Of a DNA stretch of 5,989 nucleotides, positions 1 through 5,989 are shown in pieces. The notes beneath the pieces were generated by a model, which was given only the letters and a program-made list of their open reading frames with translations, was not told the origin of the DNA and did no database searches. The position numbers were made by a program, and so were the translations under genes. The DNA is from a virus. Taxonomy: Duplodnaviria > Heunggongvirae > Uroviricota > Caudoviricetes. The stretch lies in IMG/VR virus record IMGVR_UViG_2563366803_000001; one strand, 5' to 3'. How positions within the stretch are numbered: position 1 is the stretch's first letter; each line of letters starts with the position of its first letter.

Positions 1-235
1 TCAAAATCGGTGGAGCTGCATGACAAAGTCATCGGGCATTATCTGAACATAAAACACTATCAATAAGTTGGAGTCATTACCAATCTGTAATAAAAGCGTA
101 AACAACTGCCGCTAGGCTTGCTGATCCCGCGCAACAAAACGCCATGCTTTGCTCGCAGATGGTTGGCAACCGACGACAGTCCTGCTAAAACGTTCGTTTG
201 ATATCATTTTTCCTAAAATTGAATGGCAGAGAATC
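1..235. promoter_or_regulatory. Non-coding region upstream of proB; expected to hold the proB promoter and, from K-12 gene order, the divergent phoE promoter. Individual -35/-10 elements not resolved.
   Basis: No convincing ORF on either strand. A weak GAGA Shine-Dalgarno precedes the proB ATG at 236. The phoE assignment is from remembered K-12 gene order (phoE-proB-proA-thrW), not from sequence in the window. Confidence 0.35.
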
Positions 236-1339
236 ATGAGTGACAGCCAGACGCTGGTGGTAAAACTCGGCACCAGTGTGCTAACAGGCGGATCGCGCCG
301 TCTGAACCGTGCCCATATCGTTGAACTTGTTCGCCAGTGCGCGCAGTTACATGCCGCCGGGCATCGGATTGTTATTGTGACGTCGGGCGCGATCGCCGCC
401 GGACGTGAGCACCTGGGTTACCCGGAACTGCCAGCGACTATCGCCTCGAAACAACTGCTGGCAGCGGTAGGGCAGAGTCGACTGATTCAACTGTGGGAAC
501 AGCTGTTTTCGATTTATGGCATTCACGTCGGGCAAATGCTGCTGACCCGTGCTGATATGGAAGACCGTGAACGCTTCCTGAACGCCCGCGACACCCTGCG
601 TGCGTTGCTCGATAACAATATCGTTCCGGTAATCAATGAGAACGATGCTGTCGCTACGGCAGAGATTAAAGTCGGCGATAACGATAACCTTTCTGCGCTG
701 GCGGCGATTCTGGCGGGTGCCGATAAACTGTTGCTGCTGACCGATCAAAAAGGTTTGTATACCGCTGACCCGCGCAGCAATCCGCAGGCAGAACTGATTA
801 AAGATGTTTACGGCATTGATGACGCACTGCGCGCGATTGCCGGTGACAGCGTTTCAGGCCTCGGAACTGGCGGCATGAGTACCAAATTGCAGGCCGCTGA
901 CGTGGCTTGCCGTGCGGGTATCGACACCATTATTGCCGCGGGCAGCAAGCCGGGCGTTATTGGTGATGTGATGGAAGGCATTTCCGTCGGTACGCTGTTC
1001 CATGCCCAGGCGACTCCGCTTGAAAACCGTAAACGCTGGATTTTCGGTGCGCCGCCTGCGGGTGAAATCACGGTAGATGAAGGGGCAACTGCCGCCATTC
1101 TGGAACGCGGCAGCTCCCTGTTGCCGAAAGGCATTAAAAGCGTGACTGGCAATTTCTCGCGTGGTGAAGTCATCCGCATTTGCAACCTCGAAGGTCGCGA
1201 TATCGCCCACGGTGTCAGTCGTTACAACAGCGATGCATTACGCCGTATTGCCGGACACCACTCGCAAGAAATTGATGCAATACTGGGATATGAATACGGC
1301 CCGGTTGCCGTTCACCGTGATGACATGATTACCCGTTAA
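236..1339 (+). CDS. proB: Glutamate 5-kinase (gamma-glutamyl kinase), 367 aa
   Basis: The ORF track gives 149..1339, but the protein from the internal ATG at 236 ([19 protein letters not shown]...) matches the known ProB N-terminus and a 367-aa length. It has the amino-acid kinase fold and a C-terminal PUA-like region. TAA stop at 1337-1339 lies 11 nt before the proA start, an operon arrangement. Confidence 0.96.
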
Positions 1340-1350
1340 GGAGCTGGCCG

Positions 1351-2604
1351 ATGCTGGAACAAATGGGCATTGCCGCGAAGCAAGCCTCGTATAAATTAGC
1401 GCAACTCTCCAGCCGCGAAAAAAATCGCGTGCTGGATAAAATCGCCGATGAACTGGAAGCACAAAGCGAAATCATCCTCAACGCTAACGCCCAGGATGTT
1501 GCTGACGCGCGAGCCAATGGCCTTAGCGAAGCGATGCTTGACCGTCTGGCTCTGACGCCCGCACGGCTGAAAGGCATTGCCGATGATGTGCGCCAGGTGT
1601 GTAACCTCGCCGATCCGGTGGGGCAGGTAATCGATGGCGGCGTACTGGACAGCGGCCTGCGTCTTGAGCGTCGTCGCGTGCCGCTGGGGGTGATTGGCGT
1701 GATTTATGAAGCGCGCCCGAACGTGACGGTTGATGTCGCTTCGCTGTGCCTGAAAACAGGTAACGCAGTGATCCTGCGCGGCGGCAAAGAAACGTGTCGC
1801 ACTAACGCGGCAACGGTGGCGGTGATTCAGGACGCCCTGAAATCCTGTGGCTTACCGGCGGGTGCCGTGCAGGCGATTGATAATCCTGACCGTGCGCTGG
1901 TCAGTGAAATGCTGCGTATGGATAAATACATCGACATGCTGATCCCGCGCGGCGGGGCTGGTTTGCATAAACTGTGCCGCGAACAGTCGACGATCCCGGT
2001 GATCTCAGGTGGTATAGGCGTATGCCATATTTATGTTGATGAAAGTGCAGAGATTGCTGAAGCATTAAAAGTGATCGTCAACGCGAAAACCCAGCGTCCG
2101 AGCACATGTAATACGGTAGAAACGTTGCTGGTGAATAAAAACATCGCCGATAGCTTCCTGCCCGTATTAAGCAAACAAATGGCGGAAAGCGGCGTGACAT
2201 TACACGCAGATGCAGCTGCGCTGACACAGTTGCAGGCAGGCCCCGCGAAGGTGGTGGCGGTTAAAGCCGAAGAGTATGACGATGAGTTTCTGTCATTAGA
2301 TTTGAACGTCAAAATCGTCAGCGATCTTGACGATGCCATCGCCCATATTCGTGAACACGGCACACAACACTCCGATGCGATCCTGACCCGCGATATGCGC
2401 AACGCCCAGCGTTTTGTTAACGAAGTGGATTCGTCCGCTGTTTACGTTAACGCCTCTACGCGTTTTACCGACGGCGGCCAGTTTGGACTGGGTGCGGAAG
2501 TGGCGGTAAGCACACAAAAACTCCACGCGCGTGGCCCAATGGGGCTGGAAGCACTGACCACTTACAAGTGGATCGGCATTGGTGATTACACCATTCGTGC
2601 GTAA
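1351..2604 (+). CDS. proA: Gamma-glutamyl phosphate reductase (glutamate-5-semialdehyde dehydrogenase), 417 aa
   Basis: 417-aa ORF starting [20 protein letters not shown], with a GGAG Shine-Dalgarno (1326-1329) upstream of the ATG. Aldehyde dehydrogenase-type protein in the expected position and length for ProA after proB. Confidence 0.96.
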
Positions 2605-2808: not shown

Positions 2809-3972
2809 TTACACATCATTAGTACCTTCCTTATTTTTTGACTGGGACAAATTTGGGACCGATGGGTTCAGGATCGAGTCTATTTGCCGTGCGTGTTCGG
2901 TAAGGTGATTAGGTGCAAGGTGAGCATATCGACGAACCATTTCGATAGACTCCCAGCCTCCCATTTCCTGTAACACTGACAACGGGACTCCGGCTTGAAC
3001 CAGCCAACTTGCCCAGGTGTGTCTCAAGTCGTGAAATCTGAAATCATCAATACCAGCCCGTCTCAGCGCCGCTTTCCAGGCTGTGTTTGCGTCATACCGC
3101 ATCTTCCTTACTGTTGGCGCTTTCGTTCCGTCTGGTTTGGTACAGCTTTCCTTGTACACAAATACCCAACGGTGATGATTCCCGATTTGTTTTTTCAATA
3201 CGCGACATGCAGTATCATTCAGCGCAACGCCAATTGCGCGGTTTGATTTACTCTCTTCCGGGTTTATCCATGCCACCCGGCGCTGCATATCTATTTGTTG
3301 CCATTCAAGGTTGATGATGTTCGAGCGTCTTAAGCCTGTTGCCAGTGCAAATTCAACAACAGACTTTAATGGCTCCGGACATTCATCAATCAGCCTTTGT
3401 GCTTCATGGGGCTCCAGCCAGCGGATCCGTTTATTCTTTGGTTGAGGCACTTTAATAATTGGTGCCTTATCCAGCATTTTCCATTCACGCTCTGCGGCTC
3501 TTAGTAGGGCCTTTATAAATGAAAGATGCGTAGCCTTCGTTGCAACGGACGCTGGTTTTGGCGTGTATTCTGGAACAGGTTTCCCTTTTTTTCTGCATGC
3601 TTCTGCCCTGAGTTTCCAGTTTTCCTCATGACGCCGGTTCGTCATTTTCTGCATTGCTGAATAAATTTTTGATTCAGTAATGTCTCTTAGTTGCATTCCT
3701 GCGAAATGTTGAAGCCAGAATCCGATCCGGCTTTTGTCATCGTCCAGTGATTTTTTATGTGCTTTCTCTTCAAGCCACCTGACACATGCTTCCTCGAACG
3801 TTATATCAGGTATTTCACCAAGTTTACTGACCCGCCATGCTTCAGCCTTTAGCTTGTCATGGAGTTCTGTCGCCTGCCTTTTGTCCTTTGTTCCAAGAGA
3901 CTTTTTAAATCTTTTACCGTTCGGCAATGTGAAACTGGCGTACCATATTTCACCTCTGCGGAAGAGTGACAT
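2809..3972 (-). CDS. int: Phage tyrosine integrase (site-specific recombinase), 387 aa, P22 Int-like
   Basis: C-terminal catalytic signature [40 protein letters not shown] (HxxR ... Y) and an upstream R in ATGLRRSNI. The N-terminus [22 protein letters not shown] matches my recollection of P22 Int. Shine-Dalgarno GAGGAAA precedes the ATG at 3972. Confidence 0.93.
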
Positions 3973-4199
3973 TTTCTTTCCTCTGTTATGCCATCACCCG
4001 CGCTCACCTGGACAGTATGCAGCGGAGACTGAAGAGCCGCAATGCAGGCTTGTCGTGTTGTGAGGTAAGGAGATTTATTCTTAGTGGGATCTTTGCGTGT
4101 TGCCTGAAGACGCCCTGTGCGTATCCAGTTAATAGCAGTCGGTCTGGATATCTTGAGAAAATGACAGGCCTCATCGAGTGTGAGGCTGTATGGCTCCAT
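3849..4199 (-). CDS. xis: Excisionase, 116 aa, P22 Xis-like
   Basis: Starts at the internal ATG 4199-4197 ([32 protein letters not shown], helix-turn-helix-like), preceded by a strong AAGAGGTG Shine-Dalgarno. The ORF-track start at 4283 has no such site. The 116-aa length matches recalled P22 Xis. The 3' end overlaps int by 124 nt in another frame. Confidence 0.8.
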
Positions 4200-4543
4200 T
4201 ATTTCACCTCTTGCTGTGACATTGTTGAAAAACGGATACCAGCTCGTTGCTGCCAGACGATCCAACCGAGAGTCATATCCCATGCCATGTATTCGTTATC
4301 GCCGTTTTTTGCTCTCCGACGATCGACTGTTTTACCGAAACGCTTTTCCATAAATAATTCATAGGCTGCGCGTTCATCTGGCTCAACTTCCAGAGATGCC
4401 AGTGCAATCCGTGCCAGTTCTAAATCATTTTCAAGCTCAGCGCGAATCTCAGCGAATGCACTCTGTGTTAAGGCGAACTCAATGCTCTGCACTTTATTCC
4501 GTGCGCGCTCAAGCAGTGCATGGTAGTTAATTTCGGTTGTCAT
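4199..4543 (-). CDS. Hypothetical prophage early-left protein, 114 aa, unknown function
   Basis: Good GAGG Shine-Dalgarno about 9 nt upstream of the ATG at 4543. Its start overlaps the stop of the upstream gene (ATGA, 4540-4543) and its TAA stop overlaps the xis ATG (TAATG, 4197-4201). Charged N-terminal half that looks helical by eye; no motif I recognise. Confidence 0.6.
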   Translation of the reverse strand: MTTEINYHALLERARNKVQSIEFALTQSAFAEIRAELENDLELARIALASLEVEPDERAAYELFMEKRFGKTVDRRRAKNGDNEYMAWDMTLGWIVWQQRAGIRFSTMSQQEVK

Positions 4544-5418
4544 ACCCCTACCTCTTCGAATTCCAATTCCAATTGATCACCCCAGATTTCACATGACTCT
4601 GAACACGAACCGGTATCGAATCGCCTGGCCTGTACCATCGCCTGATACAAATTTCTGTAGTCGCTGTTGGCAGACATTCTGGCAATTCCGTCAAGCGTCA
4701 GGTGACCACGGTACATAATGTCTTTACCTGTTCTGCGATGACCATCCCTGACGTGTTTGCCTGTAACCAGCTCATTAAAAACTCGCATCAGACCTGGTTC
4801 GTCTTTACATGCAAGCCCCAGCTTTTGCGTTGACTTTTTGATGCAGAAAACACAGTTCCCGAGATGCTCCGGGATTTGCAAATCAAAAGGTTGTTTTCGC
4901 CACCACCGGATAACATCCGACTTATCAAAATCTGACAGCTCGGCAAGATACCGGACGCCCGATTTCGGTTTCAGCCTACGGGGTTCGTCTGCACGAATAC
5001 CCAGCCATGTGATGTAATTACCTCGCCCGAAATGGTTATCGCAGTATTTCGTGAAAGGGATGAGTTTTAGCCTGTCAGTACAGAACGCGCCGCCGATGTA
5101 TGGCGTGCCGTACTTTTTAACCATGTCCATAAACGGTTTAAGCACCGGCATTCGTGTCTGAATATCCTTTGGCTCCCATTCTGTATAACCATTTGGCTGC
5201 CCAAGCTCAGGATTTATATCGACCTGTAACACAGTTAGTGGTATGTCCCAGAACTTTACAACCTCCCGGATAAAGCGGTATGTCAGCGGATGTTCGCAAC
5301 CGGTATCCATAAAGATGTAGCAGACGTTATTGCCAGCCTTTCTTTGTTCTTCCATCAGGTGAACAAGATATGCGGATGTTCTCCCGCCAGAAAAACTAAC
5401 TACATGAGTTATGCACAT
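4540..5418 (-). CDS. PAPS-reductase-like PP-loop ATP pyrophosphatase family protein, 292 aa
   Basis: N-terminal PP-loop motif VVSFSGGRTSAYL (SGGxxS type), as in the CysH/CysD/DndC family. Cysteine motifs NCVFC and C-terminal CSESC. Start ATG 5418-5416 overlaps the 3' end of the HD-domain ORF by 10 nt. Confidence 0.8.
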   Translation of the reverse strand: MCITHVVSFSGGRTSAYLVHLMEEQRKAGNNVCYIFMDTGCEHPLTYRFIREVVKFWDIPLTVLQVDINPELGQPNGYTEWEPKDIQTRMPVLKPFMDMVKKYGTPYIGGAFCTDRLKLIPFTKYCDNHFGRGNYITWLGIRADEPRRLKPKSGVRYLAELSDFDKSDVIRWWRKQPFDLQIPEHLGNCVFCIKKSTQKLGLACKDEPGLMRVFNELVTGKHVRDGHRRTGKDIMYRGHLTLDGIARMSANSDYRNLYQAMVQARRFDTGSCSESCEIWGDQLELEFEEVGV

Positions 5419-5766
5419 TTGCGTAATTCAGATAACTCGTTGAAGCGTTCCATAAACATCCCGTAGGCATGGCCCGGTGCCAGTGGAATAACTTTGAACA
5501 TCTCTGTTGCCGGGATACCTTCCAGTACAGGCCATAAAGAGCCATCATCAAGCCCGAGATCACGGCGTTCGGTTGCCAGCATAATGAGATCGGCATATTT
5601 CACTGGCGTGCTCATAACAGGAGGTAACCCGTATTTCTCACGGATTACTGCATCTATTTTTTCTTCCATCCGTTTATAGTCAGGAAGAAGGCGTTTCAGT
5701 GGTGCGGGGATGTCCTGGCAATACGCTTCTGTTGCATCATGCATTAACGCTTCAAAAGCAAATTCC
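5409..5766 (-). pseudogene. C-terminal fragment (about 119 codons) of a YfbR/YfdR-like HD-domain 5'-deoxynucleotidase, N-terminus removed by IS2
   Basis: The frame is open from the IS2 junction. The motif ALMHDATEAYCQDIPAPLK matches the recalled YfbR metal-binding motif MYHDASEVLTGDLPTPVK, and the later VKYADLIMLATE resembles YfbR VKQADALCAYLK. The part upstream of the HD motif, about 55 residues including the first His, would lie beyond the IS2 end. Confidence 0.7.
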
Positions 5767-5807
5767 TGGATTTGCCCCTATATTTCCAGACATCTGTTAT
5801 CACTTAA
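5767..5807 (-). repeat. IS2 right terminal inverted repeat (IRR), about 41 bp
   Basis: Same sequence match as the IS2 feature above. The element boundary at 5766/5767 is set by where the recalled IS2 terminus ...CAAATCCA ends. Confidence 0.7.
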
Positions 5808-5989
5808 CCCATTACAAGCCCGCTGCCGCAGATATTCCCGTGGCGAGCGATAACCCAGCGCACTATGCGGATGCCATTCGTTATAATGCTCGAACGCCTC
5901 TGCAAGGTTCTTTGCTGCCGTTAACCCGTCTGGTTTGGGCATGATACTGATGTAGTCACGCTTTATCGTTTTCACGAAGCTCTCTGCTA
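5778..5989 (-). CDS. insD: IS2 transposase InsD (orfB), C-terminal 70 residues; 5' part outside the window
   Basis: The translation ...[68 protein letters not shown] matches the recalled IS2 InsD C-terminus. TAG stop at 5778-5780. The ORF is open to the window edge. Confidence 0.85.

Follow-up and report, generated by a model that had tools for sequence, protein, structure and literature searches.

The stretch of DNA analyzed here (5,989 nucleotides, in the following termed the window) is 100% identical to positions 9756–15744 of scaffold KE137162.1 of Escherichia coli KTE102 (GCA_000408585.1; here L003), in which runs of N flank it on both sides. It represents a whole contig of KTE102 that breaks at an IS1 on the left and inside an IS2 on the right, where the window stops because the assembler broke the contig in this repeat; both window ends are assembly breaks at repeats and not biological boundaries. 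The open reading frames given below were taken from the ORF list (in the case of the PAPS reductase-like gene in combination with Pfam), the insD segment was identified by translation, and the IS2 end repeat was read directly from the sequence:

236–1339: proB
1351–2604: proA
2719–2794: thrW, a tRNA-Thr gene that adjoins the prophage remnant
2809–4543, minus strand: prophage remnant beyond the PP-loop gene, consisting of int, an excisionase-like ORF and a 114-aa ORF
2809–3972, minus strand: integrase gene (int)
overlapping the integrase gene, minus strand: excisionase-like helix-turn-helix (HTH) ORF (xis)
4199–4543, minus strand: 114-aa ORF
4540–5418, minus strand: PAPS reductase-like PP-loop gene (292 aa)
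5409–5766, minus strand: yfdR', the 3' two thirds of yfdR (codons 61–178 plus the stop codon at 5409–5411)
5409–5744, minus strand: 111-aa ORF, the start codon of which corresponds to Met68 of YfdR, immediately ahead of the HD motif
5762–5766, minus strand: the five bases flanking the IS2 right inverted repeat (GGAAT on the minus strand)
5767–5807, minus strand: 41-bp right inverted repeat (IRR) of IS2 (plus strand TGG...TTAA)
5767–5989, minus strand: 3' terminal 223 bases of IS2 (IS2 bases 1109–1331)
5778–5989, minus strand: C-terminal 70 codons of insD (IS2 orfB) and its TAG stop codon at 5778–5780

At the opposite end, positions 1–81 are the last 81 bases of an IS1 that lies 154 bp upstream of the proB start codon. 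The KTE102 scaffold (L003 15664–16462) contains one IS1 (81 bases, 620 N, 98 bases) between proB and crl, a place occupied by phoE in other E. coli; it thus seems that IS1 has taken the place of phoE.

The right end of the window (5989–5767) matches bases 1109–1331 of the annotated IS2A of E. coli K-12 MG1655 in 223 of 223 positions, which places the IS2 terminus at 5767. This nucleotide identity includes the 41-bp right repeat ending in ...CA-3', the length and TGG...TTAA ends of which are as described for the IS2 IRR (PMC3299598). The insD end is likewise identical to the C-terminus of K-12 insD1 as annotated and of the 301-aa InsD ORF in a closed relative with the identical junction (L002, see below), and the distance from the insD stop codon to the IS2 terminus is 11 bases in K-12 and the window alike. 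The earlier reading of this DNA from its sequence alone, according to which the right end of IS2 meets an HD-domain ORF at 5766/5767, was thus correct in its coordinates. Had the junction been made by direct insertion, the flanking GGAAT would represent one of the two copies of the 5-bp target duplication; IS2A in K-12 is bordered by the 5-bp duplication ATTAC.

When window positions 5300–5768 were compared with 5426 complete E. coli genomes by megablast, they matched, with identities of up to 99.8%, genes that carry the annotation ‘yfdR: 5'-deoxynucleotidase’ and precede a PAPS reductase family gene. When the fragment was aligned with the complete 178-aa YfdR from E. coli 2014C-3075, residues 1–59 proved to be missing and residues 60/61–178 to be kept, codon 60 (CAG) being rebuilt from the terminal CA of IS2; residues 60–178 are identical to the 178-aa RefSeq yfdR 5'-deoxynucleotidase WP_000008187.1. 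The proposal that IS2 truncates an HD-domain gene upstream of its HD motif is hereby substantiated and the gene assigned as yfdR: the HD dipeptide H69-D70 (5736–5741) is retained, and the N-terminal helices are gone. The lost part includes the VAQH50A segment, in which H50, judged by the YfbR motif, is probably the first metal-binding histidine; with residues 1–59 absent, the fragment does not contain the complete metal-binding set (H...HD...D) of the full-length domain. Membership of YfdR in its family rests on the RefSeq annotation and on PMC4776307, since the Pfam YfbR-like score stays below the cut-off (25.9 bits) even for the intact protein (24.3 bits; 20.4 bits for the fragment). We conclude that the yfdR fragment is a pseudogene. 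Its 111-aa ORF is deposited as EOW11119.1, ‘phage protein [Escherichia coli KTE102]’, with exactly the same protein sequence. Direct reading of the sequence upstream of Met68 (TTTTGAAGCGTTAATG) disclosed no clear Shine-Dalgarno motif, and the ORF is probably not a real gene. For annotation purposes, records of the 111-aa product as ‘phage protein’ or ‘HD family hydrolase’ therefore refer to a pseudogene fragment. The 90% cluster of this fragment comprises several other YfdR C-terminal alleles termed ‘partial’ whose first residue is Q60 or one close to it, one of them annotated from Salmonella enterica. Such starts could mean that other alleles carry IS2 at this position and that contigs break there, or could mark a mosaic boundary in yfdR; contig breaks alone may explain them as well.

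The sequence-only reading had also pointed out that the insD stop codon is followed by the HD fragment in the same frame, with no other stop in between. Translation of the minus strand confirmed this, giving ...NRCLEI (TAG stop) GQIQEFAFEALMHDATEAY...RKCA (stop) across the junction, and the insD frame past the TAG is open up to the yfdR stop codon. The accompanying suspicion of coincidence was justified as well: only three IS2 codons (GGG CAA ATC) lie beyond the TAG, the remaining open frame is the native yfdR frame, and the chance of a match between the insD and yfdR frames is 1/3 for an IS2 in the orientation of the gene. The continuity of the two frames is a coincidence and has no function, a fusion protein being blocked because translation stops at the TAG; a fused InsD-YfdR' protein would require amber suppression.

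The PP-loop gene downstream of yfdR' was indeed left intact, as had been assumed. The 292-aa ORF is complete, scores 35.3 bits with Pfam PF01507 (cut-off 22.5) and carries the N-terminal SGGxxS signature of PAPS reductase-like PP-loop proteins in the form of SFSGGRTS at residues 8–15. Its ATG (5416–5418) overlaps the yfdR stop codon (ATGTGCATAA), and no Shine-Dalgarno motif was found upstream of this ATG upon direct reading of the sequence. Owing to these two features, translation of the PP-loop gene was probably coupled to that of yfdR. With this presumed coupling broken and the phage early promoter lost from the remnant, the gene is more likely to be silent than to have been spared. In most assemblies, gene callers start the PP-loop gene at Met22 (271 aa) and thereby remove SFSGGRTS. 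The 271-aa call is probably a mis-annotation, and its correction would be of some value, as the call strips the PP-loop from the gene. We had considered, on the basis of the 271-aa calls, a frameshifted PP-loop gene in relatives and rejected this idea, the 292-aa ORF being intact; two indels between the closed relative and the window were located at window positions 2775 and 2789, at the att/thrW end.

The identical IS2/yfdR' junction was found in GCA_964051545.1 (L002) on a gap-free 2.6-Mb contig, which permits the DNA beyond IS2 to be read. Here, IS2 is represented by bases 238–1331 only; bases 1–237 are absent, and a complete 768-bp IS1 (L002 8117–8884) lies directly upstream of IS2 base 238. 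Upstream of this IS1 are ykgO, ykgM and ykgR, with ykgL cut by the IS1, resulting in the order ykgO-ykgL'-IS1-IS2(238–1331)-yfdR'. The IS2 in this genome is thus not a complete element: IS1 occupies the place of its left repeat, its own promoter and the insC start, for which reason the remnant is immobile, and the OrfAB transposase cannot be made because insC has lost its start. The 9 bases flanking the IS1 on either side differ (AATGTTGAC versus GCGTAAGCA), and we therefore regard this IS1 as a rearrangement joint rather than a simple insertion. An E. coli genome of ordinary layout has ykgL, ecpRABCDE, ykgJ, yagU and paoABCD after ykgO; in L002, no ecpRABCDE, ykgJ, yagU or paoABCD lies in the interval from ykgO to the remnant (L002 7948–8116 compared with L013 20449–20710). 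The ecp-pao region appears to have been deleted and not moved elsewhere, and the L002 lineage may lack the E. coli common pilus operon (ecp), barring relocation of the operon to another place in the genome.

In KTE102 itself, the contig that precedes the gap likewise terminates in ykgO-ykgL' and the left end of IS1 (395 of 395 positions identical), in the same order and orientation. The gap between this contig and the IS2 end is given as 4960 N, versus 1601 bases in L002. Judged from this colinearity, the KTE102 gap probably has the same structure as L002, yet it may contain extra sequence, including a complete IS2 or other elements. Simple insertional disruption of the HD-domain gene, as originally proposed, does not hold: what lies beyond IS2 in L002 is IS1 and ykgL/ykgO, with no 5' part of yfdR, and the KTE102 scaffold shows the same order. 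It had been set beforehand that DNA unrelated to an HD-domain gene beyond the other end of the element would argue against such a disruption, and on this ground we discard it. The difference becomes obvious upon comparison with yaiX::IS2A of K-12 MG1655, the same element (100% over the 223 bases present) that likewise interrupts a coding gene. There, both gene halves surround a complete 1331-bp IS2 with its ATTAC duplication, whereas only the 3' gene half is present here, and L002 has IS1 in place of the IS2 left end, followed by unrelated chromosome.

The ancestral arrangement could be deduced from an IS2-free homologous prophage, a comparison that had been suggested along with the initial interpretation. 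E. coli 2014C-3075 (L001) harbors such a prophage, likewise integrated at thrW; it matches at 99.7% over 2997 bases, encodes the full 178-aa YfdR and has the order int, HTH, DNA-binding protein, PAPS reductase-like gene, yfdR, yfdQ, yfdP and repressor/cro region. The ancestral state is int-xis-orf-PAPS reductase-like-yfdR-yfdQ-yfdP. The int/xis end is 97.6–98.3% identical to the Shigella phages SfIV, SfV and SfII, identifying the element as a remnant of the SfII/SfV/SfIV group of thrW-integrating phages. A Shigella origin of the DNA, which the SfII/SfV-like integrase and the burden of IS1 and IS2 had at first suggested, was dismissed in view of the annotation of the source as E. coli KTE102. 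These phages and CPS-53, a cryptic prophage of K-12 (PMC4776307), share the yfdR gene family and the early-left neighborhood with the remnant but have an intact yfdR, which is truncated here; in K-12, yfdR is followed by the DUF551 gene yfdS, in the present case by the PAPS reductase-like gene.

Past the att site, the same int...yfdR'::IS2 remnant borders different elements in different assemblies. It is followed by thrW-proA in KTE102 (L003), and in other assemblies by P4-like satellites that carry Psu, Ogr/Delta and primase genes besides varied cargo, such as two reverse-transcriptase genes in L007 or a DprA-like and a hydrolase gene in L008; in L004, L005, L009 and L010, the P22-like ejection-protein genes gp16/gp20/gp7 come next. 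The attachment site beside the remnant thus seems to have been reused repeatedly. In L002, proB-proA (18754–20336, compared with window 1–1583) is inverted relative to the int...yfdR' block, and IS1 and IS21 copies as well as a P4-like element are situated between the two, which indicates a further IS-associated inversion or rearrangement.

We consider it very probable that mobile elements caused an SfII/SfV/SfIV-like prophage at thrW of E. coli KTE102 to decay and that the junction is a fossil of this process. According to this model, IS2 would have landed in codon 60 of yfdR in the same orientation as the gene, and an IS1 would later have come to sit at IS2 base 237/238. Either a deletion associated with IS1 or recombination of one IS1 copy with another would then have eliminated the IS2 left end, yfdR codons 1–59, the remainder of the prophage and the neighboring chromosome up to ykgL, to leave int-xis-orf-PAPS reductase-like-yfdR'-IS2(238–1331)-IS1-ykgL'/ykgO. 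Adjacent deletion by IS1 is a classical source of IS1-associated deletions and rearrangement joints. The present case resembles these in that IS2 base 238 and ykgL, which normally lie far apart, are joined by a complete IS1 whose 9-bp flanks do not match; it differs in that the mechanism has to be deduced from the end product, and either adjacent deletion or recombination between two IS1 copies might apply.

Two other origins of the junction were weighed against this sequence of events. IS2 could initially have resided elsewhere in the early-left region, its right end being joined to yfdR codon 60 only later, when IS2 brought about an adjacent deletion or rearrangement that eliminated the DNA between the old IS2 site and codon 60. 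This would be in line with the loss of the left side of IS2, which leaves no 5-bp target duplication to be demonstrated, and with the reciprocal junction not having turned up. The left junction between the yfdR 5' part and the left inverted repeat (IRL), predicted to read CCGCAGGAAT followed by TAGACTGGCCCC, gave no hits in exact-pattern scans of genome_contigs and metagenome_contigs, collections in which the known junction was equally missed: scans of genome_contigs, viral_contigs and metagenome_contigs with the existing IRR/yfdR' junction yielded no match. The corresponding predicted protein (YfdR 1–61 plus IS2 left-end codons, 77 aa) was absent from a collection of ~15 billion proteins, in which short ORFs at contig ends often remain uncalled; the 111-aa fragment is present in the same collection. 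The absence of the 77-aa product would equally fit the IS1-related deletion proposed above. Yet IS2 transposes by a copy-out/paste-in route through a minicircle, which normally leads to simple insertions with 5-bp duplications (PMC3299598), as at yaiX, and the missing left side is already explained by the later IS1 event, so that this course of events is unlikely. An assembly artefact, i.e., an IS2 end wrongly joined to yfdR at a repeat, might be suspected given that the window ends within IS2 in a gapped scaffold. However, the junction is common to all 10 independent contigs examined, drawn from NCBI, ENA and Logan and including the gap-free 2.6-Mb contig, and we have ruled out the artefact at a residual probability that is vanishingly small.

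Whether the junction has any functional consequence is a separate issue. The right end of IS2 contains an outward -35 element that works together with the left-end -10 only at a 17-bp spacer (PMC3299598, PMC3219604), and IS2 fusion promoters have been documented at ampC (Jaurin and Normark 1983) and acrEF (both reviewed in PMC9330008), where the same IS2 end faces an adjacent gene of the same direction. In L002, ykgM, ykgO, IS1 insAB, insD and yfdR' all point in one direction as well. It is therefore conceivable, albeit very unlikely, that transcription starting in the IS2 right end, or read-through from IS1 and the Zur-regulated ykgM-ykgO operon, drives the PAPS reductase-like gene, xis and int. 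According to the 17-bp geometry, the -35 hexamer is probably TGGAAA (5784–5789, minus strand). With the joined IS2 ends of K-12, TGGAAA is followed by 16 IS2 bases plus 1 spacer base and then TAGACT; in the window, the hexamer at the mandatory 17-bp spacing is GAATTT, with 2 of 6 matches to the -10 consensus, unlike the ampC and acrEF fusions, for which the flank supplies a usable -10 hexamer at the correct distance. A consensus scan of 5300–5989 returned 0 promoter sites versus 1.6 expected from shuffles. The sequence-only reading, which could not make out a convincing hybrid promoter, is in line with these results; no hybrid promoter with an outward -35 and a usable flank -10 at about 17 bp is evident from the sequence, and read-through from upstream genes is possible. 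Transcripts reaching the PP-loop gene would in addition encounter a gene that has no Shine-Dalgarno motif of its own and has lost its overlapping translated upstream ORF. Extremely improbable, in our view, is a rewired remnant in which zinc-starvation-induced ykgM-ykgO transcription could proceed through IS1 and the promoterless IS2 fragment to express the PAPS reductase-like gene, xis and int, or in which Met68-Ala178 of YfdR is made and still binds DnaA. If rewiring were true, the locus would make a small case study of an IS-built operon fusion; a DnaA-binding fragment could confer a new conditional phenotype on this E. coli lineage.

It had further been proposed that the insertion relieved the cell of a costly or toxic nucleotidase. 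Selection for loss of YfdR may be argued on the grounds that the protein binds DnaA and that multicopy yfdQ and yfdR together with yfdS or yfdT inhibit replication initiation (PMC4776307). However, this inhibition requires joint overexpression of these genes, and deletion of yfdQRST is without phenotype (PMC4776307). Of the 5426 complete E. coli genomes, 2654 contain at least 80% of a 951-base stretch that extends from the start of the PAPS reductase-like gene through yfdR into yfdQ, and megablast detected the IS2/yfdR junction in none of the 5426. With intact yfdR-yfdQ in about half of the complete genomes, the toxicity argument is unsupported. Moreover, over about 3 kb the ten junction contigs examined share 99.9% identity or more, pointing to a single event in one lineage. 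In lambdoid phages, the early-left operon is expected to be silent in the repressed lysogen; by analogy, a gene of the early-left operon such as yfdR should be silent here too. Adaptive inactivation is thus highly improbable, and the change at yfdR was presumably neutral.

Taken together, decay of a thrW prophage by IS2 and IS1 accounts for the locus as ordinary mobile-element damage, with no support for a regulatory or adaptive role. It is a correctly observed case of two insertion sequences eroding a prophage and the neighboring chromosome, which as such matters little; the junction nevertheless provides a clean marker for one E. coli lineage.
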